Assembly: GCA_964618725.1 (NCBI GenBank)
Contig: CAZUBK010000001.1
Span: 68,878 to 132,877 of the forward strand
Direction: 5' to 3'
DNA: 64,000 nt
Source: an uncultured Pseudomonadales bacterium
Lineage (GTDB): Bacteria > Patescibacteriota > Microgenomatia > UBA1400 > Chazhemtobacteraceae
The position numbers and the translations under genes were made by a program. Below the pieces are notes generated by a model. The model was not told the origin of the DNA, did no database searches, and saw only the letters and a program-made list of their open reading frames with translations. Below are positions 3,624 to 44,598 of the stretch, piece by piece; the stretch's first letter is position 1; every line of letters begins with the position of its first letter.

Positions 3624-3649
3624 TAGGCTTACGAGGCTTGTTTATGAGT

Positions 3650-5623: not shown

Positions 5624-5656
5624 TGTTTTTGAGAATTAACAATTAAAAGAGAAAAA

Positions 5657-26678: not shown

Positions 26679-26687
26679 AAAGATATT

Positions 26688-27809
26688 CTATACAATGGGC
26701 CCTTGCGTTTCGCCGTCTTCTAGCTCAAGTAAATCAATACCTTTGATCTCTGGGAAGCTTTGACCAACGATTCCCTTGATCTCGCCGACCATTCCGGCAG
26801 TATTACTGATAAGGCGTTGGACTTGGGCCTCACGGCTTTTCCAGATTTTTTCGAAGGCGACGCGTTCCTTGACGATCTGAAGGTGCATCTCCTGATAGAC
26901 TTCGGCGATTGCTTCAACTTGGTGACGGAACTGAGGACTGGCGATGAAGGAGTAGAGAGTATCGGCTTTTTCGCCTCGATTTTGGGCAATGAAACGTTCC
27001 TTGGCGGTGTCGATGAGAGTTTTGCGAAGAAGCTCTGCAACCGGCACAACTAGATCGGGTTGGCAGACCCAGATGCCATCATGAGGTCCCGTCTTGGTGG
27101 TCAGCTCTTTGGGTAAGATGACGCTGACGATGACGGCGAGATCGGCTTTTTCGCCTCTTAAATCTTCTTTTAACTTGGTTGACCAATCGGACTGCCAGGC
27201 TTTAGTACGCTTGCTTTCCCAGAGAATGGTGCCACAGACATTGCCGCGTGGTGTTTTGACGATTTGACGAAGATCAGCGCCTTTAACACCTTTGCCAACG
27301 GGGCTGATGGTGTCACTGGGGAAGCTACTTATGAGAGTTTCTTCCAGATCGAGTTCTAGGACCTCACCTTGGAGCTGCTGGGAACCCTGTTCGAGCTTTC
27401 GTTTGAGCTCTTCATTAACTCTAAGAATGTCGCTGAATCGCTTTTCGTTCTCTAGATCTTTGAAACGATGTTCTTCTTTGGCGCGCTTGATAGCCTCATC
27501 TTCAATAAGGCGGGATTTCTCATCGATGGCCCGAGAAAGCCTAAGATCAAACTCCTTTTGAGCCTGCTCTAGTTCTTGGCGCTTTTTCCGGAGTTGTATT
27601 TCGTTTTTTTGAGATTCAGTTAGCTTTTCTTCTGTTTTCTTGAGTTGTTCCAGGAGTAGGTTTAGTTCGCCTTCATTTTGTTTCTTGAGCGAGTCTTTGA
27701 TTTCTTGCTCTAGCTTGACGAATTCTTTCTCGCGAATCTGGTGGCTTATTATCTCGTCAACAGAGACCGGTTTACCACAGTGGGGACAATTGACTTGATT
27801 TGTAGACAT
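26688..27809 (-). CDS. DUF2130-like protein: N-terminal C4 zinc ribbon, long coiled coil, C-terminal PD-(D/E)xK-like nuclease motif
   Basis: Start taken at MSTNQVNCPHCGKPV (1 nt after the upstream gene's stop). KEK-rich heptad region. C-terminal GADLRQIV...GTILWESKRTK matches the D...ExK pattern. Confidence 0.5.
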   Translation of the reverse strand: MSTNQVNCPHCGKPVSVDEIISHQIREKEFVKLEQEIKDSLKKQNEGELNLLLEQLKKTEEKLTESQKNEIQLRKKRQELEQAQKEFDLRLSRAIDEKSRLIEDEAIKRAKEEHRFKDLENEKRFSDILRVNEELKRKLEQGSQQLQGEVLELDLEETLISSFPSDTISPVGKGVKGADLRQIVKTPRGNVCGTILWESKRTKAWQSDWSTKLKEDLRGEKADLAVIVSVILPKELTTKTGPHDGIWVCQPDLVVPVAELLRKTLIDTAKERFIAQNRGEKADTLYSFIASPQFRHQVEAIAEVYQEMHLQIVKERVAFEKIWKSREAQVQRLISNTAGMVGEIKGIVGQSFPEIKGIDLLELEDGETQGPIV

Positions 27810-27810
27810 A

Positions 27811-28680
27811 TTAGAGAAGCTGGCTCTCTTTGCTGTTGACATCTTTGTTGACGACGTAGAGATCGTTGTTGTATCCACTAACTCCAACATATTCTCCCCG
27901 ACCTTCGAGGACAGCTTCCAGTGGGCGGCAATGGTGACATCCTTGAGTGGGACACCTAAAACGCTCTAGTTGTCGGGCGAGTTTGATTTCTTTAGCGATC
28001 TTGAGTATCTTCTGCTGCGCTTCTTCTAGATTGGGAAGAGTTTTTTGTGTAAGCGAGTCGCTTAGACCAAGGTACCAGTAACTGGCTTCGGTAGCGGGAC
28101 GGTTTTGGGTATTATTAACGAGGAGATGGTAGATGGGAAGCTGTAAAGAGCTCGGATCCTCTTCTGTTTTACTGGTCTTGAAGTCGATAATGTGAACTGA
28201 ATCAGTATCGGGAAGGTATTCGAGCCAGTCGATCTTGCCACAGAGGATAATATTGTCATCATCAGAGAGCCAATAGTAGGGTAGATCCATATTGATCTTA
28301 ACGGCGAGACGAGTTAGGGGGCCGGGGTTTTTCTCAATGTTACGAAGCATTTGAATACCTCTTTCTTTGTATTTGTGTTCGGTGTTATTGTCAAAGAAAC
28401 CACCTTTTTTCCCGGTATATTTTTGCCAGACGTATTCAAACTTATCGACCAGAGGAGCTAGAAAGCGTTGATGTGTAGGGAGCACGGAGAGAGATTCGAC
28501 AACTTCATGGACGGCGGCGCCGAGGGAAAGAGGGGGAGTTATTACTTGGATCTTATGTTTGGTCTTGGGGTCCTTGTAGACGTTTTTGAGATAGTAGGCA
28601 CGAGGACAGGCAAGGAAATCGCTCAAGGAAGAGTGGGAGACCCAAACGGCGGAGAATTTATCTTTAGGCATAGGGCTCAT
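27811..28680 (-). CDS. Cas4/RecB-like PD-(D/E)xK nuclease with Fe-S cluster cysteines
   Basis: SHSSLSDFLACPRAYYLK (N-terminal Cys), IIDFKTSK (D-x-K), C-terminal CPTQGCHHCRP (three Cys). Architecture resembles PDDEXK_1/Cas4-family nucleases. Confidence 0.55.
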   Translation of the reverse strand: MSPMPKDKFSAVWVSHSSLSDFLACPRAYYLKNVYKDPKTKHKIQVITPPLSLGAAVHEVVESLSVLPTHQRFLAPLVDKFEYVWQKYTGKKGGFFDNNTEHKYKERGIQMLRNIEKNPGPLTRLAVKINMDLPYYWLSDDDNIILCGKIDWLEYLPDTDSVHIIDFKTSKTEEDPSSLQLPIYHLLVNNTQNRPATEASYWYLGLSDSLTQKTLPNLEEAQQKILKIAKEIKLARQLERFRCPTQGCHHCRPLEAVLEGRGEYVGVSGYNNDLYVVNKDVNSKESQLL

Positions 28681-28733
28681 TTTAACACTTAGAGGGTTTG
28701 ACAGAAAAACATCTCAACAGGTAAGCTTGGCGC

Positions 28734-29030
28734 ATGGCAGCAAAGTTTAAGGAAGCCGTTAAAGAAATGATGGCAATGCATCAGGCTGAGTTTGAAGAAT
28801 TCAAGAGAATTCACGAGTTGTTTACGGGAGACAAGAAGAAATGGTCAGCGGAATACAATAGGACTGGGAAACCGATCGTTGATTATGTTCTGGCAGCAGA
28901 AAAGCGACTTTGTTCTAAATCAGAGAGTAGCGGATACGGGGCTTATTCAACCAAGCTGTCAGAGAAATTTCGCGAAGAGGTAAAAACACATTTTCCCTTG
29001 ATAGATTTTGTTGGGGTAACTTTTTCCTAG
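28734..29030 (+). CDS. Hypothetical protein (98 aa)
   Basis: ORF between the nuclease and hydrolase genes; no motif recognised. Confidence 0.3.
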   Translation: MAAKFKEAVKEMMAMHQAEFEEFKRIHELFTGDKKKWSAEYNRTGKPIVDYVLAAEKRLCSKSESSGYGAYSTKLSEKFREEVKTHFPLIDFVGVTFS

Positions 29031-29731
29031 ATGGTTAATAGGTGAGAGTTCTGCTTAAGCCACTTTACATGATCCTTGTAATCAGGATCAAGTGATTTAA
29101 CAAGATTCCAGAAGGTTTTACGGTGGTGACGATGAATGAGATGACAGACCTCGTGGATGACGACATAGTCGACGATTTTGTGAGGGGCCTGGATTAGTTT
29201 GCGATTAAAGTTAAGATTATTTCTTCTCGAGCAACTACCCCAGATAGAGGAGACGCGTTTGAGAGTGATTCGTTGGTAACTTACATTTAGGAGTTGGCAA
29301 AAATGGTTAACTTTTTGAGTAATCACTTTTTTGCCTTGTTTGAGATACCACTTGGTGAAGAGATGTCTGAGTTCGAGACTCGTTTTGCCTAAAGAGAAGC
29401 TACTGGGAACGAGGGCCTCGAAAGAGTTGTACAAAAGAGAAAGTTTAGCCTTTTTATTAGTCAGCGAACGGGTAATCTTAAGCGGGAAGGACTCGCCAAA
29501 GTAGAGGTGGATTTCTCCATCGCAATATTTTTTCTTCGGGGAAGTCACTTGTTCTAGTTTGGCGAGTTGAGTAAGTACCCAGTCTTTTTTTTGATACAGA
29601 AAGGCCTCGATTTGAGAGAGCGGAACAAAATGCGGGGCACGAACAAGCACACCATGTTCAGATGAAATCTGAATGCTGGTGGTAAAGTTCCTATTCTTAC
29701 TTTTTTTGATGGTGTATTTAAACGGTAACAT
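29027..29731 (-). CDS. DUF45/YgjP-like HExxH metal-dependent hydrolase
   Basis: C-terminal VVIHEVCHLIHRHHRKTFW (HExxH plus extra His). Start placed at the Met overlapping the helicase stop by ~14 nt; the track ORF extends to 29809. Confidence 0.55.
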   Translation of the reverse strand: MLPFKYTIKKSKNRNFTTSIQISSEHGVLVRAPHFVPLSQIEAFLYQKKDWVLTQLAKLEQVTSPKKKYCDGEIHLYFGESFPLKITRSLTNKKAKLSLLYNSFEALVPSSFSLGKTSLELRHLFTKWYLKQGKKVITQKVNHFCQLLNVSYQRITLKRVSSIWGSCSRRNNLNFNRKLIQAPHKIVDYVVIHEVCHLIHRHHRKTFWNLVKSLDPDYKDHVKWLKQNSHLLTI

Positions 29732-31016
29732 TGTATTGACGAATTTGATCCATGAACTGAAGAATAACGGGGTCGAGCATGATATCACGGGGATTGACCG
29801 GACGAGCAAGAGACAAGCCAGATAGGGAACGGCAGCGACTCAGAGCAACATAAGCCTGGCCGTGTGCAAAGGCACCTCGACCCAGATCAACGTGGGCACA
29901 ATCAAAGGACTTGCCCTGGGCTTTGTGGATAGTGACGGCCCAGGCGAGACGAAGGGGAAGCTGGGTAAAGCTGCCTATTTCTTCTTGTTTGAGAGAGTTG
30001 GTCTGGTGGTCAAAGATTGTTTGCAACTGATTCCAGGTAAAAGGCTTGACTTCAACCTGTGCACCATCATCGATCTTGACCTTGACGGTGGAGGCAGAGG
30101 TTTTGGTGACAGTCCCGAGCGTCCCGTTGATCCAAAGGCCACCTGGCTCGTTGTTAAGAAGCATCACCCGGGCGCCTTGTTTGAGGATGAGTTTCTCTGC
30201 GGTGGGAAATTGAGTAGTAGAGAAATGGCCACTACTAAAGCCTCGGTACTCAAAAGATTTGGTAGTGAGTTTATTTAGCTCAATATTATTTATCTGATCG
30301 GCTTGCCAGTTGGTGGCGGTGAGGACAAGACCGCTGTCTCTTTGGCGGACGCGTTGGTTGAGAAAAGTAAGATCACCAGGAGTGGCAGTTTTGTTTCTGA
30401 TTTTGTTGAGAAGAGAAATGAATTCCGGCTCATTTTGGCGATAGATTTGGTCGAGTTCGATGAAGGCAAAGTCGGGAAGTAGATTGTGGAGTAGGTTCTC
30501 GAAGGAGACGGCAGAGAAAAAGTAGGGAGATTGATATGCCATGGTGAGGATTTCTTTTTCTTCCTCAGTGACGATGGGGGGGAGCTGAAAGAGGTCGCCG
30601 ATCATGACGAGTTGGACACCGCCAAATGGAGCTTGACTTTGGCGGACAGCGCGAAGGAAGGCGTCGATGGTATCGAGAAGATCGGCCCGGACCATAGAGA
30701 TTTCGTCGATAATGAGGGTGGTAAGAGCTTTAAAGACTTCTTTCTTACGCGACTTGCCGGCGAGGCGCTTGGCATCGGTAGGCGAGACACCGGGGCGAAA
30801 ACCAAAGAAAGAATGAATGGTCTCGCCGTTGACATTGACGGCGGCAACACCAGTGGGGGCAACCACAGCGAGGGGCTTACTGGTAATACTTCGAAAGTAA
30901 CTGAGAAGGGTTGATTTGCCGGTACCGGCCTCGCCGGTGATGAAGATGTGTTTGTTGGTTTTCTCAAGGAGGTCGAGAGCTTTTTGAAAGTTTGGGTTAA
31001 TGTCGATTTGTTGCAC
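29718..31016 (-). CDS. Pif1/RecD-like SF1 DNA helicase
   Basis: Walker A GEAGTGKSTLL, Walker B LIIDEISMV, and C-terminal VTIHKAQGKSFD motif characteristic of Pif1/RecD/Dda helicases. Confidence 0.7.
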   Translation of the reverse strand: MQQIDINPNFQKALDLLEKTNKHIFITGEAGTGKSTLLSYFRSITSKPLAVVAPTGVAAVNVNGETIHSFFGFRPGVSPTDAKRLAGKSRKKEVFKALTTLIIDEISMVRADLLDTIDAFLRAVRQSQAPFGGVQLVMIGDLFQLPPIVTEEEKEILTMAYQSPYFFSAVSFENLLHNLLPDFAFIELDQIYRQNEPEFISLLNKIRNKTATPGDLTFLNQRVRQRDSGLVLTATNWQADQINNIELNKLTTKSFEYRGFSSGHFSTTQFPTAEKLILKQGARVMLLNNEPGGLWINGTLGTVTKTSASTVKVKIDDGAQVEVKPFTWNQLQTIFDHQTNSLKQEEIGSFTQLPLRLAWAVTIHKAQGKSFDCAHVDLGRGAFAHGQAYVALSRCRSLSGLSLARPVNPRDIMLDPVILQFMDQIRQYNVTV

Positions 31017-31052
31017 TCTTGAAGAATATCTTGTGGTCGTTACAATGGCAAC

Positions 31053-31838
31053 ATGAGTTTCTCAAAGGAAATACTTAATGACTTGGGTTGGTTTGATGGC
31101 ATGAGAAAAGAAACTGAACTGAGGGAACCAGTTACGGGCATTTTTGAGATAGAGGCAAATACTATCGAACTACGAGAGAGACTGAGAAAAGGACAGCGAG
31201 TGATACTGCTTGTCAGTGGTGTTTCTGGAGGTGGGAAAGATAGTTTGGTCAAGGCGTTGGTTGGAGAAGATCAAGACAGTAGCAAGTTTATCCGGGTCAA
31301 GACGTGCACCACCAGGGAACCAAGAGAAGAAGAGAAAATAGAGGATCCTTATGTTCGCCTAAGTGTCGAGGACTTTTTGCAGAAGCAAGAGAGGGGTGAG
31401 TTTTTTGAATGGGATGGTCCTTACGCCGAGGCATGGTACGGAGCCAGTCGAGAAGTAGTGAGATCTTTTCTTGAGACAGGAAAGACTTGTCTTTTTGTCA
31501 TTACACCAGATGGGGCGAGAAACTATCTAAGAATTCAAAACGAAGGAGAGGAGATTTTTGAAGATGCCGCTCTTATTTACTTGTTTCTGTTACCAGAAAA
31601 CTGGCGACAGTTGGGGCGAAGACTGTTGGAGAGAGAAGTATACTCTAAGGATTGGACGGGTCAGGATCCACATGAGAAGAAAAAGGCTCGTCAGACTGTC
31701 CGGAAACGCTGGGCGCAAAACGCCAAAGACTTGGAGAATATGGACAAGGCCCATTTTGTCGTAGTCAATGAGAGTGGCAACATTGAGAGAGTGGCGGAGA
31801 GCATAAAGGGGTTGATAGGAGAGTTGGAGACACTCTAG
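31053..31838 (+). CDS. Guanylate kinase-family protein with atypical P-loop and N-terminal extension
   Basis: LVSGVSGGGKDSL (P-loop ending KD rather than K[ST]), VKTCTTREPREEEKIEDPYVRLSVEDF (TTR.PR..E..G.DY.F pattern), and VVVNESGNIERVAESIKGLI, which matches the Gmk C-terminus. Confidence 0.5.
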   Translation: MSFSKEILNDLGWFDGMRKETELREPVTGIFEIEANTIELRERLRKGQRVILLVSGVSGGGKDSLVKALVGEDQDSSKFIRVKTCTTREPREEEKIEDPYVRLSVEDFLQKQERGEFFEWDGPYAEAWYGASREVVRSFLETGKTCLFVITPDGARNYLRIQNEGEEIFEDAALIYLFLLPENWRQLGRRLLEREVYSKDWTGQDPHEKKKARQTVRKRWAQNAKDLENMDKAHFVVVNESGNIERVAESIKGLIGELETL

Positions 31839-31842
31839 CAAA

Positions 31843-31868
31843 AGTCCCCAGCTTTTGCTGGGGACAAT
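31843..31868. terminator. Bidirectional terminator hairpin
   Basis: aaagtccccagcttttgctggggac between convergent genes. Confidence 0.55.
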
Positions 31869-31872
31869 GGGG

Positions 31873-32391
31873 TTATTCTTCTTGAGGAGGATGAGCTGCT
31901 AGATATTCCAAAAGCTCCTCTTGAGCCTTGGCATATTCATCAGGATTGGTATGTATCTCAAGGAACTGACTGATCCATGCATGTTTGAGATCGCATTCGG
32001 GCAATCTGGAAATTTCTTCACGTAATTTCTCATCCGGATAGTTCTCGGATCGCATTGCTCTAATTAGTTCGTTTCGAACAAAATCGGCCATTTTCTCGTA
32101 ATGAGGAGAGTCGTTTCTATGTTTTTCCCAGTGCATGAGTATCTTTGTTTCAATATAAATCGTCATTTCCTCGAGTGATTCAAAAAGTCGTTTGGTGTGC
32201 GGTTCGTAACCGATCCCATCAGCAATGCCGCCGTAGTAGATCTCAGCTGTTTCTTTCGAAATTTCATTGAAAGCATATGGATCGTGATCGTGAATTTGCC
32301 ATGTAGCATAGCGAAAGAACCTGGGTGGAGTAGATAGCTTAGTAGCGATAACCAGACAGAAATCTGAGCCACATCGATATATCTGATACAT
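31873..32391 (-). CDS. Hypothetical protein (172 aa)
   Basis: ORF. An HDHD...H pattern hints at a metal-dependent hydrolase but is not diagnostic. Confidence 0.35.
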   Translation of the reverse strand: MYQIYRCGSDFCLVIATKLSTPPRFFRYATWQIHDHDPYAFNEISKETAEIYYGGIADGIGYEPHTKRLFESLEEMTIYIETKILMHWEKHRNDSPHYEKMADFVRNELIRAMRSENYPDEKLREEISRLPECDLKHAWISQFLEIHTNPDEYAKAQEELLEYLAAHPPQEE

Positions 32392-32554
32392 TGAATCTCC
32401 TTTTTTAAGTTGCGATTATAAGATTATACCACGAGGCTGAGAGGGCTTTCCATAACCCAGCTTTTTTTCTTATCAGAATCGGGCAAGAAATTTTCTCCAG
32501 TGACTAATGACTGCCTCGTTGACATTAAGTATATATTCGTGATATACATAATTT

Positions 32555-32851
32555 ATGAAGAAGTTGCCTGCTCCTCTAGCCTTTGACTGGGATAATGGAA
32601 ATATTGACAAGAACTTGAGAAAACACGGCGTTCACCATAAGGAGGCTGAGGAAGTCTTTTTTAATAAACCAATCAAAGTATTTAAGGATATTAAACATTC
32701 TGGTGGTGAAAATAGATTTATAGCATTGGGGGTAACTAATAAAATAAAGTATTTATGTGCTGCTTTTACGATCAGAAAGAAGAAAGTAAAAATAATATCA
32801 ATTAGATCTCAAAGCAAAAGAGAAAGGAGAATATATGAACAAACTAACTAA
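32555..32851 (+). CDS. brnT: BrnT-family toxin (type II TA ribonuclease toxin)
   Basis: LAFDWDNGNIDKNLRKHGVHHKEAEEVFFNKP...HSGGENRFIALGVT...KIISIRSQSKRERRIYE follows the BrnT pattern (F.WD..K...N..KHGV.F.EA..VF). Confidence 0.7.
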   Translation: MKKLPAPLAFDWDNGNIDKNLRKHGVHHKEAEEVFFNKPIKVFKDIKHSGGENRFIALGVTNKIKYLCAAFTIRKKKVKIISIRSQSKRERRIYEQTN

Positions 32852-33125
32852 GCCAATACCAAAGTTTAAAAACGAAGACCAAGAGAGAGAGTTCTGGGCA
32901 AAGAATGATTTTGCTGATTATATGAATCAATTTGAAAAAGTTGACTTGGATTTATCTAAACTCAAACCTTCAACTGAGTCTATTTCTCTAAGACTACCCT
33001 CATATCTATTATTCAGAATCAAGGAGATAGCCAATTCCAGAGATGTACCGTATCAATCCTTGATGAAAATGTTTTTAGCAGAAAGAGTAGAAAACGAACT
33101 GAGTAGATTGAATAGGCAATCTTGA
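32835..33125 (+). CDS. brnA: BrnA-family antitoxin
   Basis: Overlaps brnT by 17 nt. FKNEDQEREFWAKNDFADY...ISLRLPSYLLFRIKEIANSRDVPYQSLMKMFLAERV matches the BrnA RHH-like pattern. Confidence 0.7.
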   Translation: MNKLTKPIPKFKNEDQEREFWAKNDFADYMNQFEKVDLDLSKLKPSTESISLRLPSYLLFRIKEIANSRDVPYQSLMKMFLAERVENELSRLNRQS

Positions 33126-33192
33126 AATGTCATTGTTCCATGCCATGCCGGGGGCATGGGCGAAAAGTCTTTGTAGAAACATATGCTCCACT

Positions 33193-33321
33193 AGGGAGCG
33201 GGTGACCGTAATTGGCTCGAACCACTTTGGCCTGGGCGACTATATCACACCAGATCTTATTTTACAGTTCCAATCTCTTAAAGAACGAATGGGCATTAAG
33301 TCCTTCACTGGTTTTCAGTAA
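33193..33321. repeat. Repeat R copy A: degenerate copy of the tRNA-Gly 3' end plus shared ~80-nt segment (att-like)
   Basis: gagcgggtgaccgtaattggctcgaacc aligns to the plus-strand tRNA-Gly sequence gagcgggataggggaattgaacc. On the minus strand it forms a T-arm-like GTGGTTCGAGCC plus acceptor-like segment. The remainder aligns to copy B. Confidence 0.55.
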
Positions 33322-34157
33322 CTTCGTCTTCGTTCTTGAATTTCTTTTAATGCGACATCCAGCTGAGATGTAATAAGTGCAACAACGCCTTCTTTAGTAA
33401 AGCGCATATAGCGTCCGTCTTTAGCTGAATAATAGAATCCTAGTTTGAAAGCTTCTGCTAAATTAAACGTATACATAAAGCTATTATAAAAACTTTCAAA
33501 ATTTCCTCTGAATCTTGCCTCTTCAGCTTGTTTAAACAGTTTCCAATATTCGGAAGTAGAGAGTTCTTTTCCCAATTTACTTCCATACCTTCGTAGGTTC
33601 ATAAATTCACTATTGTTATCAACATATCCTTTGTCATACGTTGCCCATTTATCTAAGATATTTGGAGTCTCGTTAGATTTTAAAATTAAATAGTTAAAAT
33701 TTGGTGCGGCAACAAGCATCCCTGTCGGTACAAAATGATCGATTCCTTCGCCCCATCCAGACATAAAAGTAGTCATGTCTGCATCGTGACCCGAAAAACA
33801 GAAATTTTCAGGGTGCGTATGTACATCAAATGTCGGTACAAACTTGTCTCTTTTTTTGGAAACTGCCCACCCACACGCATCTTCACCAACATCAGGATTG
33901 GTCGGGAAAATAATCTTTTTATTTCCAATTTCAACATGAAGAACTGCTCCTCTTTCTCGGTGAGCAACATCTATCTTTGTCAAATCAGATAACCAATTGA
34001 CATAAGATTCTATTCTTATAGCATGGAAAGTATCCCTTAAATACAATGGACTAGGAAGTCTTCCCTCAGCTGAATTGATAATATAGGCTTCAAGCTCGCC
34101 GTTTTTGGGATTCAATATTTCGGGTGGAAAAGGTACGGCTCTATTGATTTCACCCAT
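33315..34157 (-). CDS. JAB/MPN (JAMM)-like metallohydrolase-domain protein
   Basis: 280 aa. HVE...HTHPENFCFSGHDAD gives E...HxH-x6-S-x2-D, one residue shorter than the canonical JAMM spacing. C-terminal helical region. Confidence 0.35.
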   Translation of the reverse strand: MGEINRAVPFPPEILNPKNGELEAYIINSAEGRLPSPLYLRDTFHAIRIESYVNWLSDLTKIDVAHRERGAVLHVEIGNKKIIFPTNPDVGEDACGWAVSKKRDKFVPTFDVHTHPENFCFSGHDADMTTFMSGWGEGIDHFVPTGMLVAAPNFNYLILKSNETPNILDKWATYDKGYVDNNSEFMNLRRYGSKLGKELSTSEYWKLFKQAEEARFRGNFESFYNSFMYTFNLAEAFKLGFYYSAKDGRYMRFTKEGVVALITSQLDVALKEIQERRRSY

Positions 34158-34180
34158 ATTGTAACATCATGTAATTTCCT

Positions 34181-34326
34181 AGTAACTTTCTGTTTATTTC
34201 TGTTACTTTTGGAGCTGGTGACCGTACTTTGCTCGAACCTGCGAGACTTGGTTACTCCAGATTTAATTCTTCAGTTAAACGCTCTTAAGTCCTATATTGG
34301 TATCAAATCCTTCGCTTTTTGTTAGC
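34181..34326. repeat. Motif P copy plus repeat R copy B (degenerate tRNA-Gly 3' end and trailer)
   Basis: agtaactttctgtttatttctgttacttt (P) is directly followed by gagctggtgaccgtactttgctcgaacc...tccttcgctttttgttag (R). This parallels the P2 + tRNA-Gly arrangement at 34759..34860. Confidence 0.55.
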
Positions 34327-34345
34327 TTAGATTGTGGTTAAGTCT

Positions 34346-34741
34346 TTAACTAATAGTACTAAGCTTTTTCCACGATTTTAATAGTTCGATGCAATAGAAA
34401 ATTCCCAACAGAGGAAAAAAGAAAGAGGTAATCATTCCAGAATAATAACTCATTTGAGCTACACCTCGGATAAAATGATGAGATTCAAGAAAAAGACTAA
34501 TTCCATAGTAGGTTAAAGGAACAAACATCCATCTTCCGCCTTTAAATATAAGGAAAGCTCCTATTAAAAATAAGTAAAAGGGAAGATGAAAAGCAAAGTA
34601 GGCAGTTTCTTTGATTGAATGAAAATAGTCCATAAAAACAGGACCAACTTCGTAGTATTTTGTCAGCGTACACTCAGCAAAATGAAACCAAGACAAAATA
34701 ATGGAGAAAAACAAAAGTGCTTGAAGCTTTTTTGAGATCAT
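34346..34741 (-). CDS. Small 4-TM membrane protein
   Basis: 131 aa, four hydrophobic helices, rich in aromatic residues. Confidence 0.4.
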   Translation of the reverse strand: MISKKLQALLFFSIILSWFHFAECTLTKYYEVGPVFMDYFHSIKETAYFAFHLPFYLFLIGAFLIFKGGRWMFVPLTYYGISLFLESHHFIRGVAQMSYYSGMITSFFFPLLGIFYCIELLKSWKKLSTIS

Positions 34742-34789
34742 TTAATTGTAATTTTCGAGTAACTTTCTGTACATTTCTGTCACTTTATG

Positions 34790-34860
34790 AGCGGGATAGG
34801 GGAATTGAACCCCTCACCACACCTTGGGAAGGTGTTGTTATACCGATTAACTAATCCCGC
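34790..34860 (-). tRNA. tRNA-Gly (anticodon CCC)
   Basis: Minus-strand cloverleaf: acceptor gcgggat/atcccgc, anticodon stem acacc/ggtgt with loop ttcccaa, T-arm agggg ttcaatt cccct. Confidence 0.8.
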
Positions 34861-34907
34861 ATGGGTGCAATTTTAACATGGGTAGGCCTTGCCTTGACTG
34901 TTAGAAT

Positions 34908-35606
34908 GTGTTTATGGCATATACGTCACGATTGAAAAGGCACGAGGGGAGACAGGCATTTATGTATATTGTGTTGTCAGTTCTATTTATCCTCTTCATG
35001 GTCAAGTGGGGAGTGCCCGGTTTGATCCAGGTATTGTCTAAAGACCAGGTGGCGTCGAACAACAAGAGCGGGGTAGATATTCCAATCCAGCCACCAGTGT
35101 TGTCAAATTTGCCAGAGGCAACTTTTAGCGGGACAATAAAGGTGTTGGGGTTGGCTTTGGTTGGTCAGAAGGCGCGACTGTATCTTAATGGCGGCGTATT
35201 TGATGAGAAGGCGGTTGATACAGAAGGTAGATTTGAGTTTGAGAACGTGACGTTATCTGCCGATGAGAATACGATCGGGGTACAGGCAATCGAGGGCGAA
35301 AAAGAAAGTGAGATTGCCGAGGCGAAAATCATTTACGACGCCAAGAAGCCAGAGATAGAGGTGACAGAGCCGAAAGAAGAGAGTCAGTTTTTTGGCAGAG
35401 ATCAACAAAGTGTAGTGATTGTCGGCAAGACTAGCGAAGAAGATGTTGAGGTAACGATAAACGGTAACTTTGTTTCAGTTGGAAATGATGGTAGCTTCAA
35501 ATACCGAACGAAATTGAATGAAGGATTAAATGAGTTTGTGATTGTGGCGATAGATAAGGCGGGTAATATGACGGAAAAGCTATTTCGACTCAGTTTTGCG
35601 CTTTGA
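34908..35606 (+). CDS. Membrane-anchored secreted hypothetical protein (beta-rich, possible Ig-like domains)
   Basis: 232 aa. TM MYIVLSVLFILFMV, followed by acidic, beta-strand-patterned sequence. Confidence 0.4.
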   Translation: MFMAYTSRLKRHEGRQAFMYIVLSVLFILFMVKWGVPGLIQVLSKDQVASNNKSGVDIPIQPPVLSNLPEATFSGTIKVLGLALVGQKARLYLNGGVFDEKAVDTEGRFEFENVTLSADENTIGVQAIEGEKESEIAEAKIIYDAKKPEIEVTEPKEESQFFGRDQQSVVIVGKTSEEDVEVTINGNFVSVGNDGSFKYRTKLNEGLNEFVIVAIDKAGNMTEKLFRLSFAL

Positions 35607-36692
35607 GGCTAGACCGACCATGCACCAAAGTAGAGTCAGGGTCCAGAGATAAAAAAGGGTGTTGTTGAAGATGGAGTGGATAAGAAGTGAAATGTAAGAA
35701 GCAAAGAACGCCGGGTGAGGTAGAAGCTTTTGGCCAATTTTGAAGAGGAGGAAGAGGAAAGAGGTGAAGCCAAATAGACCAGTAGTAGTAAGAACAAAGA
35801 GAAAGCTGTTGTCAACCCCGCCAACGCGGTTGACAATAGTAGTGTTTTGATTTGTAAATTTGAGTGAGTTGAAGCCGACGCCCAAAATGGGGCTTTGTTT
35901 AAAGAGTTCAAGTGACTTGGTCTGATTATTTAGCCTCGAGGTAATCGAGAAGGTACGGAGGAGATTGACACCTTCACCGAAGGGTTTGGGAATAATGAGG
36001 ATGGTGAGTGAAAGGAGGAGAGCGGCAATAAGAAATTTAAGTTGACGCTTTAAAATGATGAGAGTTAAAAGGCCGACAAAGAAAGCGATATATGAAGCAC
36101 GAGAGAAAGTAAGGGCGAGGGCAAGGAGACAGGGGATAACGTAGAGAGGCTTCCTCGATTTAGCGATGAGTAGAAGGGAGAAGACGGCGAGAATGGCACC
36201 GGTGAAGTTGGGGTCAAAGAGGGTGCCAACTAGGCGATAGTAGTGATCGTCGAAGCCGATTGAGCGAAGAAAACGGGTATCGGGAAGGAATAGGTATTGA
36301 AGAAGACCAAGGAGAAGGAAGATAAAGAGGCTGACCTTAGCGAGTTTGAGTTGATCGGCATTTATCTCTTGGACAGCGAAATAAACGCCTAAAGTCGAAA
36401 CAAAGCGGAGGAGATAGAGAGAGGAAAGAAAAGTTGTGGAGAGGCCGAGGAGATTTAGGTTGGCGAGGAGAGATAGGCAAGCGGCGAGAATAAAAAGAAG
36501 GAGAGGAGCATTTAATGGATCCCTGAGAAGTTTTACACGCTTAACGTAAACGAGACATAGCAAGAGGAGTAAGTTGAGGATATCGAGCCAGGCCGGGTGA
36601 ACGCTTGGATTGATTTGGGGCAGAACAAGTAATTGACCAAAAGGCCAGAAGATTATGACGAAAGAAAGAAGCTTACTTACTACTGGTTTCAT
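35580..36692 (-). CDS. O-antigen ligase-like (Wzy_C domain) membrane protein
   Basis: 370 aa multi-TM. LLIAKSRKPLYVIPCLLALALTFSRASYIAFFVGLL resembles the Wzy_C/WaaL core. Confidence 0.55.
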   Translation of the reverse strand: MKPVVSKLLSFVIIFWPFGQLLVLPQINPSVHPAWLDILNLLLLLCLVYVKRVKLLRDPLNAPLLLFILAACLSLLANLNLLGLSTTFLSSLYLLRFVSTLGVYFAVQEINADQLKLAKVSLFIFLLLGLLQYLFLPDTRFLRSIGFDDHYYRLVGTLFDPNFTGAILAVFSLLLIAKSRKPLYVIPCLLALALTFSRASYIAFFVGLLTLIILKRQLKFLIAALLLSLTILIIPKPFGEGVNLLRTFSITSRLNNQTKSLELFKQSPILGVGFNSLKFTNQNTTIVNRVGGVDNSFLFVLTTTGLFGFTSFLFLLFKIGQKLLPHPAFFASYISLLIHSIFNNTLFYLWTLTLLWCMVGLASKRKTESK

Positions 36693-37420
36693 TTTGTATT
36701 GGATAGTTCCCAGTGTTTAACGCGAGTAATTAGTGAGTAGTAGCTCATGAGAAGTGAGAAGTGAAGACCGGCCAGGCCGTCCATAAAGCCGAGAAGAAAA
36801 AAGTAATTGTAGAAGAACTTGGCGAACGGCTTGATTAGCTCTGATAGATTGAATGGGGTTTTTTGTAGGGAGGCATCAATTGTAGTGTAGCGGTTAAAAC
36901 GAAGAAATAGTTCATTTAAAGATAGATCTCGTAAATGAAGCAGGGGGCAGTTAAGTTGTCCGATTAAGCCTTTGATGTGCCAGGTCTCATGGACGGGGCG
37001 CTGCCACACTCCAGCGCCACGGCGGGCGAGTCGAAGGAGGGAAACGTTGGCGGTTTCTCCATACTTAAGGGACTGGCCCAAGAAGAGATCGTGGCGATAG
37101 AGATAGAAGCCTTGATACCGGTCAGCGTTGAGGGCGGCGAGGATTTCTTTTTTTAGCGCTTGACTAATTGCTTCATCAGAATCTAAGAAAAGTAGCCAGT
37201 CGGAGGTAGCTTTGGTAAGAGCGAAGTTGCGTTGACTGGCCCAGTCGTTATTCAGAGGATGGATAAATACCTTCGAAGTATACTTGGTGGCTTGTAGCAC
37301 CGTGTTATCACTACTTTGATCGTCGATGACGATAATCTCGTCACAGAAGCTGAGGGATCTAAGACAGCGAGTAATAGAGTTCTGATTATTTTTAGTGAGA
37401 ACAATAGCAGTGAGTGTCAT
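36689..37420 (-). CDS. Glycosyltransferase family 2
   Basis: IVLTKNNQNSI...VIDDQSSDNT...FLDSDE (DxD). Confidence 0.7.
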   Translation of the reverse strand: MTLTAIVLTKNNQNSITRCLRSLSFCDEIIVIDDQSSDNTVLQATKYTSKVFIHPLNNDWASQRNFALTKATSDWLLFLDSDEAISQALKKEILAALNADRYQGFYLYRHDLFLGQSLKYGETANVSLLRLARRGAGVWQRPVHETWHIKGLIGQLNCPLLHLRDLSLNELFLRFNRYTTIDASLQKTPFNLSELIKPFAKFFYNYFFLLGFMDGLAGLHFSLLMSYYSLITRVKHWELSNTK

Positions 37421-37454
37421 TGAGGCAATTTTAACTGAATAAAGGCATTAGAAT

Positions 37455-38957
37455 ATGAGTGTGATTAAACGAAGCTGGTCTTTGATCGGAATTGTACTTG
37501 TGTTACTGATTAGCATAGCGTTAGTACGAGTGAGAGCAGTTGTCCATGCCTGCATTAATCAGCTTATGGCCGAAGAGATATGTTGGCAGTATGTAGAGAG
37601 ATTGGAGTGGGTGACAAAGAAGATAGAAAAAGTTACTCGGAACGAAACGTTGAAACAAGTTGCTGATCTGATTGAGATGGGTAGGGAAATCCGGCCATTT
37701 AGAAACTACTTGATTGGAGAAGGCAAAAAGATAACGTATCTAGTTTTATTGCAAAACGATTTTGAACTACGTGCCAATGGAGGTTTTTCTGGCTCATATG
37801 CCGTTATTGAAATGGAAAAAGGAAGGTGGAAAATGAGGTTTGAAGACATCTATACTCCTGATGGACAACTGAACGGGTATGTGGCGCCACCACCACCGAT
37901 TCAAGCGGCTTTTAGAAAGGGTGGGTATTTGCTGCGAGATAGTGACTGGGAACCAGATTTCCCACTATCGGCGACAACGATGCGTTGGTTTTTTGAGAAG
38001 GGGGGGGAGGTCAATCCCGACATACTAGTGACACTGCCTTTTTCGACAGTAAGAGAAATAATCGGGATACTGGGGTCAGTCAAAGTACCGGAATATAACC
38101 TAACGATCAATAACGACAATATCTACGATTTCCTACAGAGTGAGAGTGAGGTTGATTTTTTTGCTGGTTCAACACAAAAAAAAGATGCGATAACTGCGGT
38201 AGGTCGAGCAGTTTTTGGTCAAGCGCGCCACTTGTCCTGGAAGGCAAAAATCAGACTGGCACATCTAATATTAGAGGAGCTGAAACGGCAAAATATGGTT
38301 GTCCACTCATTGAGTGATGAGTTTGAGCAAAAGTTATTGTTTCTAGAATTTGGCGGTGAACTAAAACCGATACGTGCAGAGGATACGGTGGTTGGTGATA
38401 CGGTTGGCCTGATTGAGGTAAATTTAGGGGCAAATAAGGCGAATTGTTGTTTGCTTCGCCAGACGGAACACGTTGTATCGGAATCCGGGGAGAAGATAAA
38501 ACACACGATCGTGGCTTGGTTTGAAAATAAATCTGGGAAAGAGAATCCAAGCCCACCTGATTTTTATGGAGGCAATTATCTGAGCTTTCTCCGTTTCTAT
38601 GTGCCCATAGAAGCGTCCAATATCAAAGTAGAGGCAGAACCGACCTACCCGAATGAGCTTATCGGTTATCCACTCCCTGTGGATACAGCGAGGAAGACTG
38701 GTGAAGTGGTAGAGACAATGAGATTTGGCTTCAAAGAGATTGGTTTTTTTCATCTAACCAAGGCGGGGACAAGGAGTCGAGTTGAATTAAGTTATCAACT
38801 GCTTATCGGAAACGAAGTGAGTTATCAACTCATGATCTTTAAACAGAATGGGGTGAGGCAATCACCACAGGTGATAGATATATTTGGGAAGAAATCAGTC
38901 GCTAATCTCGAAAACGATTTTACCGTGAGTGAAATGACAGAAAATGGGCGACCCTAA
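37455..38957 (+). CDS. DUF4012-like membrane-anchored protein
   Basis: 500 aa with an N-terminal TM. LLQNDFELRANGGFSGSYAVIEM resembles the DUF4012 signature seen near cell-envelope polysaccharide loci. Confidence 0.45.
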   Translation: MSVIKRSWSLIGIVLVLLISIALVRVRAVVHACINQLMAEEICWQYVERLEWVTKKIEKVTRNETLKQVADLIEMGREIRPFRNYLIGEGKKITYLVLLQNDFELRANGGFSGSYAVIEMEKGRWKMRFEDIYTPDGQLNGYVAPPPPIQAAFRKGGYLLRDSDWEPDFPLSATTMRWFFEKGGEVNPDILVTLPFSTVREIIGILGSVKVPEYNLTINNDNIYDFLQSESEVDFFAGSTQKKDAITAVGRAVFGQARHLSWKAKIRLAHLILEELKRQNMVVHSLSDEFEQKLLFLEFGGELKPIRAEDTVVGDTVGLIEVNLGANKANCCLLRQTEHVVSESGEKIKHTIVAWFENKSGKENPSPPDFYGGNYLSFLRFYVPIEASNIKVEAEPTYPNELIGYPLPVDTARKTGEVVETMRFGFKEIGFFHLTKAGTRSRVELSYQLLIGNEVSYQLMIFKQNGVRQSPQVIDIFGKKSVANLENDFTVSEMTENGRP

Positions 38958-38975
38958 TGGATCGCCCGAGACAGA

Positions 38976-39275
38976 TTACCTAGTCGCATCTTCTAGGTCA
39001 TTGATGATAGCATCGATCTTATTGAGCTCGTCGACACTCGGCTGACCCTGAACATCAACATGAGGTTTGGCGTAGGGGTTGGTCGTGCAGCCCAAAAAGA
39101 TGGCCACATTGCCACGGACGATACCTCTGCGGTACCGCCACCCATTCTTGCTGCAAAGCAGGTTGGACAATTCTCCCTCGACAGAAGAAGTATGTGTACA
39201 CTCTTCAATGCTGATGAGACGCTGGAGTTGAACTTGACTAAGTTGGTAGAGGGTGGAACCTGTAAGTTGACCCAT
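38976..39275 (-). CDS. Hypothetical protein (99 aa)
   Basis: ORF only. A competing 72-aa ORF lies on the plus strand; assignment is uncertain. Confidence 0.25.
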   Translation of the reverse strand: MGQLTGSTLYQLSQVQLQRLISIEECTHTSSVEGELSNLLCSKNGWRYRRGIVRGNVAIFLGCTTNPYAKPHVDVQGQPSVDELNKIDAIINDLEDATR

Positions 39276-39339
39276 TGATAGTCTCCTTTGCTAATGGTGT
39301 TAAGAACTTTGCATATTCTAGTCTATAGGATGGTACAAG

Positions 39340-40167
39340 TCAAGAGCGACGTTTGTAGTAGTGGTATGTCCAGAGAAGATAGAGGTAGGGGTAGAAGAAA
39401 ATATTATAGACTAAAGCAATTATTTTTTGTGGGAGAGGTATCCAGGTATTAATGAATGTAAGTTGGCTTTTAAAGCTAATTAGGAGTTTGTTAGTCGGTT
39501 TTGTGAAAGAAGAGGAGGTGTTGTGTTTGACGGTGACCGAGGGGTCAAGATAGAGGCGGAAACTAGCCTTGTTGGCCTTAAGGCAGAAATCGACGTCTTC
39601 GAGATACATGAAGTAGCTTTCATCTAAGAGACCAATCTTTCTAAAAACGGTGGACTTAATGAGAACACAGGCAAAGGTGACGAATTGAGCCGGTCGTAAG
39701 TCTTGGGTAGGTAGACGACTTAAGTTTACGTGAGTGGCTTGGCCGGTAACCGGGTTGACCGAGCCCTCAAGGCCAAAGAACTTTTGCCCGTTTTGAGTAT
39801 GGATCAGAGCGGGGGCGATAAGCTGGGCTTTACTTTGATTCATATGGAGAAGAAGTGGGGTCAGGAAATGTCTGGGGACTTTGGTGTCGGGATTGAGGAT
39901 GAGAATGTGAGTAGCTTTTTGTTTCAGGGCGAAACGAATACCGACGTTGTTGCCGGCGGCAAAGCCTAGATTCCCGGGGTTCTTAATCATCTTTATCTTG
40001 GGGAAGTGGGCAGAGAGATATTGAAAAGAAGCAGGGTCAGGGGAGTTATCTAGAACTATGATGTTTGTGAAAGACGACAGGTCAGAAGCAAGAAGAGAAC
40101 GAATACACCTGACCGTATCAAGATACTTTTTGTAGTTAAGAATTAGGACGAAGATTTTAGGACTCAT
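39340..40167 (-). CDS. Glycosyltransferase family 2
   Basis: FVLILNYKKYLDT...IIVLDNSPDP...GFAAGNNVGIRFAL...YLEDVDFC. Confidence 0.7.
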   Translation of the reverse strand: MSPKIFVLILNYKKYLDTVRCIRSLLASDLSSFTNIIVLDNSPDPASFQYLSAHFPKIKMIKNPGNLGFAAGNNVGIRFALKQKATHILILNPDTKVPRHFLTPLLLHMNQSKAQLIAPALIHTQNGQKFFGLEGSVNPVTGQATHVNLSRLPTQDLRPAQFVTFACVLIKSTVFRKIGLLDESYFMYLEDVDFCLKANKASFRLYLDPSVTVKHNTSSSFTKPTNKLLISFKSQLTFINTWIPLPQKIIALVYNIFFYPYLYLLWTYHYYKRRS

Positions 40168-40187
40168 CTGTTGTATTCTACTGCCAT

Positions 40188-40862
40188 ATGACTAAGCCAT
40201 TAAGGGCAGCCGTAGAAATCATTGTTGAGACATTGCAATTGAAAGGGAAGATCTTGGAAATAGGGTCGAGACAAGAGAAGAATCAACGGAAAATTGCTAA
40301 CTTACGGCCATTTTTTCATAAAAGCGAGTATCTAGGTATCGATATGAGGCCGGGGCCGGGGGTAGATAGAGTGGTAGATGGAGGAACGTTGCCATTCAAG
40401 GATGAGTCCTTTGATGTGGTGATCTGTCTTGAGACCATGGAACATGCCAGTAGACCGGGAGAGGTGGCCGCGGAGATAGAGAGGGTACTTAGTAGAGATG
40501 GGGTGGCCCTGGTTTCGAGTCAACAGAATTTCCCCATTCACATGCATCCTTCAGACTATTTTCGATACACGCCGTTTGGTCTAGCGATACTGTTTAGCAA
40601 ATTGAAGCAAAAGTTAGTGGTGGCGATTTCACCGCCTTTTGATGATGAAGTAAAACTCAATCCTCAGGCGGTCTTACTCATTGGTTGGAAGAAGAGAAAC
40701 AAGAGTATCGAGGATCTAAAAAGGAATTTGATCCAGAGTAAAAGTAGGATTTCGGCTCACAAGCCGTACAGACATAGAATTCAAGATGCCTGGAAAATCA
40801 TGAAGCGGGCTTTCAGTGAGCTTTCTTTTAGACAGGAAATAGAGTTTTTTGAAATCGATTAG
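40188..40862 (+). CDS. Class I SAM-dependent methyltransferase (Methyltransf_11-like)
   Basis: ILEIGSRQ (degenerate motif I), DVVICLETMEHASRPGEVAAEIERVLSRDGVALVS (motif II/III region). Confidence 0.5.
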   Translation: MTKPLRAAVEIIVETLQLKGKILEIGSRQEKNQRKIANLRPFFHKSEYLGIDMRPGPGVDRVVDGGTLPFKDESFDVVICLETMEHASRPGEVAAEIERVLSRDGVALVSSQQNFPIHMHPSDYFRYTPFGLAILFSKLKQKLVVAISPPFDDEVKLNPQAVLLIGWKKRNKSIEDLKRNLIQSKSRISAHKPYRHRIQDAWKIMKRAFSELSFRQEIEFFEID

Positions 40863-41959: not shown

Positions 41960-42789
41960 ATAGTGGTAACCAGCCTATCAGTAAAAAAAACTGGTTGTAG
42001 GATCAAGTTTTCTAAGACGGAAAGGTGTTTTTTGGCATAATTTGATCTTGATTCAAACCAGGCTTCATGGTTTATCCTGTCTCTGTTTGGACTACTTCTA
42101 CCCCCGAAGTGCACCATTTCAGAGTGTGGACAAAATATAACTTTTTTCCTCTTTTCTTTTGCTCTCACACAAAGGTCAGTATCCTCAAGATACATAAAAA
42201 ACGATTCATCAAACATACCTAAGTCCTTAAATAAGTTGTTTTTAATCAACATGAAACCGCCCGAAACGACATCGACCACTTTATCGCCTGCCGTTTTTTT
42301 TTCGTTCAAGTAATAGTGTACTTTGTGGAAATAATCGTAAGGAATTAGTTTCCTCAAATTAGTGTAGTCAAATAGCATTGTTTGCAGAGTTGGCTTTCGC
42401 ACATACGAGCCATGAAGCTTCTTGTTCGTTTTGTACATTTTTCCACCTGCGATATCCGCTTTGTTATTTGTGAGGCATTTGGTCAATATCTTTATAGAGT
42501 TTGATTTAGTTAAAGTGTCGGGATTTACGAAAAGTAAATACTTACCCACACTCTGCTTAGCTCCTATATTGATTCCTTTGGCAAAACCATAATTGTGATT
42601 ATTCTTAATTACTTTAAGCTTTCTAATTTTAAGTTCAAGTATTTTCTCGATAGTACTATCTTGAGAGCAATTATCAACTACAACTAGTTCGTCTTGATTG
42701 TCCATTTCCTTACTGAGACTTTTAAGACACCCTTGTATGTATTTCTCGGAGTTGTATGTAAGCACAATTATTGAAATACGTTTTGACAT
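41941..42789 (-). CDS. Glycosyltransferase family 2
   Basis: ISIIVLTYNSEKYI...VVVDNCSQDST...YLEDTDLC. Confidence 0.7.
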   Translation of the reverse strand: MSKRISIIVLTYNSEKYIQGCLKSLSKEMDNQDELVVVDNCSQDSTIEKILELKIRKLKVIKNNHNYGFAKGINIGAKQSVGKYLLFVNPDTLTKSNSIKILTKCLTNNKADIAGGKMYKTNKKLHGSYVRKPTLQTMLFDYTNLRKLIPYDYFHKVHYYLNEKKTAGDKVVDVVSGGFMLIKNNLFKDLGMFDESFFMYLEDTDLCVRAKEKRKKVIFCPHSEMVHFGGRSSPNRDRINHEAWFESRSNYAKKHLSVLENLILQPVFFTDRLVTTIWRKIR

Positions 42790-42835
42790 TGGTTATATTG
42801 ACAAATCTTTTGAATAGTTATTTTATCTAGTAATC

Positions 42836-44596: not shown

Positions 44597-44598
44597 AG

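Follow-up and report, generated by a model that had tools for sequence, protein, structure and literature searches.

The window analysed here, a 64-kb stretch of DNA from a bacterium of the Candidate Phyla Radiation (CPR; Microgenomates), carries at 33196-34795 a closely packed series of single genes and repeats, which starts at a tRNA-Gly(CCC) gene. The tRNA gene lies on the minus strand (34789-34860), is intact and was recognised by both ARAGORN and Rfam (RF00005, 60 bits), in agreement with an earlier sequence-only reading that had made it the anchor of the locus. Its extreme 3' end (34789-34795) reads GAGCGGG on the plus strand. This core, termed O, comprises the last 5 nt of the acceptor stem, the discriminator base and 1 nt, and represents the tRNA half of an attR-type (attachment site, att) junction. 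Segment P2 (34747-34788) abuts O of the tRNA and lies just upstream of a minus-strand gene for a small membrane protein of 131 aa (34346-34741). Two TTTCTGT heptamers lie in it at a distance of 10 nt, along with a promoter-like TGTACA-17-TACAAT on the minus strand, which is a consensus match only. The next repeat, copy B (34212-34325, plus strand), begins with O in the form GAGCTGG and forms an attP-like junction with the preceding segment P1 (34170-34211). P1 in turn lies directly upstream, on the minus strand, of a gene for a 280-aa protein (33315-34157). The series ends with copy A (33196-33321, plus strand), which begins with O = GAGCGGG and makes an attL-type junction to host DNA. A terminator-like hairpin (GCTCC-CTAGT-GGAGC plus a T-rich run, minus strand, 33185-33199) straddles the host/O boundary of copy A. 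Both copies hold an open reading frame (ORF) that lacks a start, of 41 codons in A (ERVTVIGSNHFGLGDYITPDLILQFQSLKERMGIKSFTGFQ, then a stop) and 37 codons in B (ELVTVLCSNLRDLVTPDLILQLNALKSYIGIKSFAFC, then a stop).

The repeats are specific to this locus. Motif P is found exactly at 34181-34209 and 34758-34786 and, with 3 mismatches allowed, only there in the 64 kb (chance expectation 0); together with the next 7 nt it belongs to a 49-nt direct repeat (34170-34218 and 34747-34795) of 84% identity. Copies A and B share blocks of 29 nt at 90% (33195-33223 and 34211-34239), 51 nt at 71% and 17 nt at 82% identity, and the repeat spacings are 1016 and 577 nt. An nhmmer profile made from foreign copies only recovered A (33196-33321, E=6.5e-36) and B (34212-34323, E=6.4e-15) and no other arm match in the window. 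What is shared differs between the partners: the tRNA and copy B have P and GAGCKGG in common, A and B share GAGCKGG and ~115 nt beyond it, while the tRNA has only the 7 nt GAGCKGG in common with A and B themselves. The sequence-only reading had described one unit repeated three times with increasing degeneracy. Two occurrences of P and the A and B repeats are real, but no P stands beside copy A, where the alignment was no better than with shuffled sequences (p=0.94-0.97) and no P-profile match was obtained. Nor is there a gradient of decay, since A is nearer to the family consensus and B is a distinct, equally intact variant that also occurs in the phage contig L040. The extra sequence that A and B had been said to share does exist. 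The three junctions host-O-arm, P-O-arm and P-O-tRNA give the pattern of two tandem site-specific insertions at one attB.

We consider it probable that 33196-34795 results from two successive integrations at the 3' end of tRNA-Gly(CCC), that the integrated elements are miniatures built on prophage arms, and that a serine recombinase acted on them in trans. On the plus strand, the order would be host-O-A, 280-aa gene, P1-O-B, 131-aa gene, P2-O-tRNA, corresponding to attL-E1-attP-like-E2-attR. E1 (1016 nt) would consist of the A-type left-end arm A, the 280-aa gene as cargo and the right-end arm P1, and E2 (577 nt) of the B-type left-end arm B, the 131-aa gene and the right-end arm P2. E2, the element beside the tRNA, would have been inserted last, and such a position of the newest insertion fits the anatomy and the comparative data. 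Each unit holds one outward-facing cargo gene only, with its own P upstream. E1 and E2 would therewith be miniature, non-autonomous elements that have kept both ends and one gene with a promoter-like P, and have no recombinase. A recombinase domain was found in none of the ~45 ORFs of the window (no Phage_integrase and no intI), and jackhmmer searches with a Xer recombinase, the Bxb1 serine integrase and the integrase fragment P0056 (see below) detected no recombinase in the window either, as the sequence-only reading had stated for integrases. Therefore, E1 and E2 either rely on a recombinase supplied in trans or are fossils.

Arms of this kind form a family of attachment-site ends that extends well beyond this locus and is widespread among Microgenomates. 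Searches with an exact degenerate pattern, which for genomes covered 185,579 species genomes, detected the arm in genomes (7 contigs), in metagenomes (26 stretches, among which there are duplicates) and in one IMG/VR viral contig. Four of the genome contigs are labelled Curtiss-, Davies-, Collier- and Woesebacteria and three as gammaproteobacterial metagenome-assembled genomes (MAGs). For the latter (L005, L009, L011; Pseudomonadales, Berkiella), mis-binning or a host-epibiont association is possible. In every arm copy the similarity begins abruptly at (T)GGAGCTGG, while the left flanks are unrelated. Many contigs stop 73-122 nt into the arm or start at the arm, as is typical of a repeat that has several contexts. 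A leader of rRNA operons as the cause of these breaks was rejected, as no rRNA lies beside the element. Reading the arm as the C-terminal part of a host gene that the phage targets and restores was likewise rejected, given only three word-sharing proteins, all of them short, and the unrelated left flanks; so was the 3' end of a conserved host RNA gene, given only 7 matches in all species genomes scanned.

In the full-size members of the family the arm forms the left end of tailed prophages of 54-61 kb or of other islands; the IMG/VR contigs L038/L039 and L040 have 54 and 59 kb. To the right of the arm, several loci (L014, L015, L018, L019, L022, L032, L033, L038/L039) show two TTTCTGT heptamers, followed by a promoter TTGCGC..TGTATAAT (TTGCGC..TATAAT) and an AbrB/SpoVT-like gene. 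The opposite strand of the same loci encodes small membrane proteins, an M23-peptidase endolysin, a 1545-aa phage protein (phrog_9854, 6e-66) and a tail fibre. L040 contains an outward-facing gene followed by P, O, a B-type arm and the phage, which is the P-O-B unit of the window. The 13-mer TTTCTGTNACTTT of P is also present ~160-190 nt inside the prophage left ends of L018, L022, L032 and L040. Tandem TTTCTGT heptamers with a 10-nt period are seen in L039 (262-300), in L040 (366-400) and in P1 and P2 of the window. In the phages the heptamers adjoin the promoter of the AbrB-like gene, and in the cassettes they sit in P upstream of the cassette genes. This suggests that a single DNA-binding protein, a phage regulator or the integrase, may act at both settings. 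Not all arms are followed by phage genes: L004, L008 and L009 have a 215-nt version of the arm and then non-phage genes. In L005 (reverse complement, 5303-6724), a ferrochelatase-like gene and a gene for a small membrane protein stand between the arm and the phage AbrB-like gene, i.e. in moron position. The 10-kb metagenome contig L034 has a long-form arm (7810-8010) and an A-type arm (9997-10101) ~2 kb apart, a possible array.

The conserved part of the arm codes for a peptide module. In frame +1 from GAG, nine diverse copies contain no stop, while the other five frames almost always have stops; a conserved stop ends the ORF in all intact copies, and the indels between A and B (9 and 3 nt) are multiples of three. 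The ratio of nonsynonymous to synonymous changes (pN/pS) was 0.15-0.6 among canonical copies and 0.4-0.7 for comparisons involving B-type copies. The 64-aa ORF that extends over copy A has three database relatives, and the arm DNA at their loci is 87-90% identical to A. As an orphan without a start, the module is present at attL in >20 loci. A module profile search of 1.84 billion representatives retrieved 80 clusters (50% identity), mostly short ORFs of 38-136 aa, which have unrelated N-termini and carry the module at their C-terminus or close to it. In P0052, a P-like peptide is followed by a tRNA-like peptide and then by the module. A long form of ~65 aa (…DxYIKxYL…IGLRYYITxDLILQL…) with ~24 extra residues in the middle occurs in L001 (10118-10321) and in P0027, P0030, P0036, P0042, P0051 and others, and the 41-aa form resembles this long form with an internal deletion.

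One database protein connects the module to large serine integrases. P0056, a sequence of 248 aa that fills an 833-nt contig, matches phrog_95 'integrase' with residues 9-193 (E=4.8e-11) and continues in frame into an L040-type module. The Bxb1 serine integrase matches the same family at 1.7e-136. P0056 corresponds to the zinc-ribbon/coiled-coil part of large serine integrases and has a weak Zn_ribbon_recom match. P0060 and P0057 have in common with P0056 an N-x-W-[AS]-A-L stretch upstream of the module, a weaker motif. A complete large serine recombinase with Resolvase (PF00239), Recombinase (PF07508) and Zn_ribbon_recom (PF13408) domains is encoded in L027 (2103-3677) and shows 30% identity to P0056 over 189 aa. 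Over the last ~28 codons, the ORF of this recombinase reads a tRNA-Lys(CTT) gene (3594-3666) in antisense. Judged from these sequences, the integrase ORF appears to span the crossover, with a tRNA-antisense tail when integrated and a module tail in the attP configuration. For tyrosine recombinases, a search with a Xer seed gave no match in any locus but the seed itself.

We propose that the enzyme behind E1 and E2 is most likely a large serine recombinase provided in trans. In the attP state such an integrase would end in the 41-65-aa module encoded by the arm, while after integration the module would be orphaned at attL without a start and the integrase would end in antisense-tRNA sequence at attR. 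We infer that E1 and E2 were produced by integrases of this family, with P as the other half-site, and that both elements can still move. A further step would be to regard the exchange between the module tail of the free form and the antisense-tRNA tail of the prophage as a switch of activity or directionality, combined with a tRNA-anchored, integron-like capture of genes in which orphan tail arms and P ends would delimit trans-mobilizable single-gene cassettes. We put this forward tentatively and regard it as rather doubtful.

Several observations weigh against the proposed integrations by a phage-borne serine integrase. The connection between integrase and module comes from the single 833-nt contig of P0056 and the weaker motif in P0060 and P0057. 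Moreover, the stretch directly left of O in P0056 does not resemble P when translated; the right end of the cassettes is therefore not that of the integrase, which is awkward if one serine integrase binds both. Serine integrases normally read both half-sites of attB, and the host flanks left of O show no conservation. The attP and attB of large serine recombinases have ~40-50 bp and an imperfect dyad symmetry about a central dinucleotide; at O, a symmetry with a recurring centre at the start of GAGC is seen, but it is weak (8-11 of 21 positions). The right end of a prophage with an A- or B-type arm was not recovered in searches with the P+O pattern, a terminal-repeat test of L040, a tRNA-Gly(CCC) pattern in viral contigs and the phage promoter pattern, nor with P0056 against viral contigs, a broader arm pattern, and blastn and tblastn against GenBank phages. 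For the phages, the seat at tRNA-Gly, the terminus P and the use of this integrase are therefore conjectural. The first 57 nt of the arm are nearly invariant across lineages, including synonymous sites, which could mean a very recent spread. Finally, copy A compared with canonical copies gives a pN/pS of 0.57-1.4; this constraint is relaxed, so that E1 may be a fossil.

Comparison with related genomes supports the tRNA-Gly gene as a hot spot. The Curtissbacteria MAG contig L001 and the contig L003 share the neighbourhood of the window (a gene with a Glucodextran_B domain, Wzy, glycosyltransferases), and in both the tRNA-Gly(CCC) gene is followed by one minus-strand gene and then by the arm. 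The cargo is different in each case, a 154-aa protein in L001 and TspO in L003. L003 has two more, decayed arm copies, of which one is interrupted by a stop and the other by a frameshift, so that three stand in series, and also a 218-aa gene. In L001, a tRNA-Gly 3' fragment lies beside the arm and closely matches the 3' part of the tRNA-Gly of L003. The locus thus has a flanking direct repeat that overlaps an intact tRNA 3' end as well as different cargo in relatives, as is known from elements that target tRNA genes. An own integrase next to the att site is absent from E1, E2 and the window and present only in the relatives L027 and P0056. The footprint of serial insertions at the tRNA-Gly 3' end, suggested by the sequence-only reading, is in this respect supported by the anatomy and by the cargo of the relatives.

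The same comparison gave some additional observations. The L001 island between tRNA-Thr(CGT) and tRNA-Gly(CCC) contains, at 7303-7977 and 9996-10117, an IS200-type Y1 transposase and two consecutive tRNA-like fragments, one of them clearly from a tRNA-Gly 3' end, and this content points to several kinds of elements that may use the same tRNA end. In the window (34908-35606), no tRNA-Thr(CGT) is found between the Glucodextran_B-domain gene and the island, and the tRNA-Gly/cassette block is inverted relative to this gene when compared with L001 and L003. Due to the missing tRNA-Thr(CGT) and the inversion, the hot spot has to be considered as rearranged, too. The tRNA-Gly of the window (34789-34860) ends with …CCCGC-T-CA and has no encoded CCA, while its L003 homologue (10906-10979) encodes CCA.

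The locus could also be a dedicated, integron-like platform for gene capture, in which the tRNA end acts like attI, P-O-arm acts like attC, and a recombinase in trans actively adds, removes and reshuffles single-gene cassettes, these being the regular exchange unit and not remnants of larger elements. Its cassettes are indeed single genes in one orientation, tightly packed between repeat units, and L003 has three arm copies in series. A 91% identical (amino acids) copy of the 280-aa protein is encoded on two 997-nt contigs (L042/L043) that consist of P, the gene and an A-type arm, and there, unlike in the window, a C-type arm end stands beyond P, so that this cassette has another neighbour. 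Cassette-sized contigs of 950-1056 nt exist for both cargo families. Contig L048 from an independent assembly of sample SRR12113420 is 100% identical to window 34211-44635 and ends one base before GAGCTGG of copy B, exactly at O; by its sequence, this break would imply a second context for a B-type end. Contig L049 is identical to window 30653-33234 and ends 39 nt into copy A, a break for which A-type copies from further genomes of that sample are the explanation. However, repeats common to the genomes of one sample explain such contig breaks equally well, and the other neighbour in L042/L043 and the break at O are only indirect hints toward a mobilization of E1 and E2. No intI or other recombinase is encoded in the 64 kb, the sites have no attC-like fold, and the cassettes bear a promoter-like P, unlike integron cassettes. 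In addition, the array has only two units, the same arm ends prophages of 54-61 kb, and homologues of the 131-aa protein on three other contigs match the window within the coding region only, with no P, arm or tRNA around them. A true integron, which the sequence-only reading had brought into play as an integron-like accretion, was rejected for the lack of intI and attC-type folds and for the promoter-like P of the cassettes, and we judge a capture platform of this kind to be unlikely.

According to the sequence-only reading, copies A and B are degenerate tRNA-Gly 3' ends with their trailer, which would fit displaced and decaying tRNA ends left by islands of tyrosine integrases with a tRNA-end attP. 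O lies in the end of the acceptor stem, and the boundary of many arm copies reads TGGAGC, the reverse complement of GCTCCA, i.e. of a CCA end. The consensus A-type start, taken from the prophage locus L039 and not from the window, contains GGTTCGAGCC and resembles a tRNA 3' half above shuffled sequences (semi-global p=0.0005-0.03 against three tRNA-Gly genes). A true tRNA-Gly 3' fragment exists in L001, and MERDTG..PWEG peptides are fused to the module in P0003, P0031 and P0082. The likeness is generic, however: tRNA-Val and tRNA-Gly(GCC) score the same as tRNA-Gly(CCC). Beyond the 7 nt, the similarity of A and B to the tRNA-Gly of the window is at chance level (local p=0.44 and 0.84; anchored gapped p=0.87 and 0.51). 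Rfam gave no match on A or B (none with the tRNA model at E<=10) nor on full 215-nt arm copies. The T-arm-like folds ascribed to the copies did not hold up, as P+arm units folded as DNA on both strands with z from +0.58 to -1.53, within the range of shuffles. What follows the core is not a tRNA end with trailer but an attachment arm from the element side, its ~115 nt being a protein-coding, element-borne module, and the recombinases linked to this module are of the serine and not of the tyrosine type. Taken together, this makes decayed tRNA ends quite unlikely. A and B as structured RNAs or as tRNA or transfer-messenger RNA (tmRNA) remnants were rejected for the missing Rfam matches and for folding not above shuffles, and a hand-drawn cloverleaf without D-arm and with a CCC 'anticodon' was rejected because it is not kept in B-type copies.

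Alternatively, the module could be an independent small gene of ~40-65 aa at the ends of elements, e.g. for a regulator or an immunity factor, the P0056 fusion being an accidental read-through and A and B being paralogues. No full copy has lost the intact ORF, and its evolution resembles that of a protein. In about ten database members a methionine stands directly before ELVTV, ERVTV or ELDTV, and ATG directly precedes GAGC at two junctions (L026/L039 and L034/L037). A conserved start codon or ribosome-binding site is nevertheless absent, with GTC in L040 where others have GTG and only TTG in copy B of the window. The conservation starts exactly at the crossover behind unrelated upstream sequence. 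P0056, P0060 and P0057 share upstream coding similarity that runs into the integrase, and in the related recombinase of L027 the ORF crosses the junction in the integrated state, too. We therefore regard an independent gene as very unlikely. An old tandem duplication confined to the region near the tRNA, or an ancestral arrangement that is fixed and has no mobility, would agree with the absence of a recombinase from the window and the relaxed copy A, but is largely refuted by the arm-family scans and the foreign-copy profile matches to A and B and highly implausible, since copies with 87-90% identity to the arms occur in lineages and contexts that are unrelated, A and B represent two types of the family, each having foreign counterparts, and relatives have different genes at this site, which is part of a low-GC island.

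Two successive integrations into the tRNA-Gly gene place the locus near several known systems. CIMEs (cis-mobilizable elements), known from the accretion-mobilization of streptococcal integrative and conjugative elements (ICEs), are flanked by att sites akin to those of autonomous elements, have no recombination or transfer genes and stand beside or in tandem with relatives at the same target. E1 and E2 resemble them in that arms A and B equal prophage left ends, P stands beside O in L040 and L042, and no recombination genes are inside. They differ in their far smaller size, in having tailed prophages instead of ICEs as autonomous partners, and in a mobilization that is putative. With large serine integrases of the Bxb1 gp35 type, known from temperate phages, the link is the three-domain architecture of the L027 enzyme and the short core common to the partner sites. 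In contrast to these, insertion takes place at the very end of a tRNA gene, conservation is lacking in the left flanks on the host side, and the integrase ORF would cross the crossover, so that its C-terminal tail changes with the integration state. Integrons share the ordered single-gene cassettes between a recurring site unit, with the newest nearest to the platform. They differ from the present locus by intI, by attI with its promoter Pc and by a folded attC, while here the cassettes have a promoter-like P and the platform is a tRNA gene.

Tycheposons of Prochlorococcus integrate repeatedly at the 3' end of small RNA genes, older elements being pushed away and remnants marking the older events (bioRxiv 10.1101/2020.12.28.424599). 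The description of the ssrA-specific genomic islands of Dehalococcoides includes tandem accretion at the tmRNA gene in a strain-variable island (PMC3146451). As in both, insertions at the window's locus would have been directed repeatedly to the 3' end of one small RNA gene and have left partial att/tRNA remnants. Unlike in both, the units have 0.58 and 1.0 kb, one gene each and no integration module, the host belongs to the CPR, and the identity to the tRNA amounts to 7-9 nt only. The tycheposon enzyme is a tyrosine recombinase, while a large serine recombinase is linked to the arms. In 'suicidal' integrases of the SSV type (Sulfolobus spindle-shaped virus), which belong to viruses and plasmids of archaea, the att site lies inside the integrase gene, so that the ORF is partitioned and one fragment is found at the other end of the provirus, a feature described as exclusive to archaea (review PMC8371274). 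An att site within the integrase ORF is likewise seen in the P0056 fusion, in the antisense tRNA-Lys of L027 and in the orphan modules, the evidence being thin, with one fusion contig. SSV-type integrases are tyrosine recombinases that lose a functional part, whereas here a serine recombinase of CPR bacteria would exchange only a C-terminal extension of 41-65 aa that lies outside the catalytic and DNA-binding domains. The combination of miniature single-gene units, a CPR host, the link to a serine recombinase and an att site spanned by an ORF is what sets this locus apart.

The genomes of CPR bacteria are very small, few mobile elements have been recognised in them, and the gain of accessory genes by these bacteria is poorly understood. 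Here, a tRNA-Gly hot spot collects one-gene units of sub-kilobase size without a recombinase, which are tied to a widespread family of prophage ends. If the proposed exchange of the integrase tail is true, the split ('suicidal') integrases of archaea would have a counterpart among the serine recombinases of bacteria. The boundary TGGAGCKGG together with the module could then be used to delimit prophages and islands in Microgenomates metagenomes, where repeats break the assemblies.

The cargo genes give little hint to their functions. The sequence-only reading had labelled the 280-aa protein JAB/MPN-like and taken the cargo for a JAMM-like hydrolase and a small membrane protein that fit a defence or accessory role. 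Except for a domain of unknown function (DUF) at 0.62, the protein has no Pfam match at E<=1, and searches of PHROG, PADLOC and PDB sequences gave no match. Its AlphaFold2 (AF2) model reached a pLDDT (predicted local distance difference test) of 41.5 and was too poor for a fold search. Three homologues share a conserved HxHP..S....D motif (HxHPx5Sx4D), the spacing of which is non-canonical compared with E..HxHx7Sx2D of JAMM proteins. An assignment as JAB/MPN (JAMM) metalloprotease is supported neither by profiles nor by the motif spacing, and a function as hydrolase or defence gene is unsupported. Exact look-ups of the 280-aa protein of the window and of P0006 gave nothing. The small membrane protein of 131 aa was matched to no family.

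Beyond copy A, a BrnT/BrnA toxin-antitoxin pair was confirmed on the plus strand, with BrnT at 32555-32851 (Pfam E=5e-22) and BrnA at 32835-33125 (Pfam E=1.5e-26). Together with a 172-aa orphan gene on the minus strand, it occupies the remainder of the low-GC island (31873-33125), in which a profile search detected no att remnant. The GC content is 0.31-0.42 over about 31.9-34.8 kb and 0.44-0.52 in both flanks. Adjoining the island, 25080-31838 contains genes of defence or DNA-processing flavour, namely for a PIF1/RecD-like helicase (PADLOC PDC-S68, 1e-22), a PD-(D/E)XK Cas4-like nuclease and a DUF2130 protein, further for a YgjP-like metallopeptidase, an orphan 532-aa protein and an atypical guanylate-kinase-like protein of 261 aa. 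The GC skew on the plus strand is positive across nearly the whole window (1-64000), whatever the orientation of the genes, and drops to about zero or below only in the island at 32-34.6 kb.

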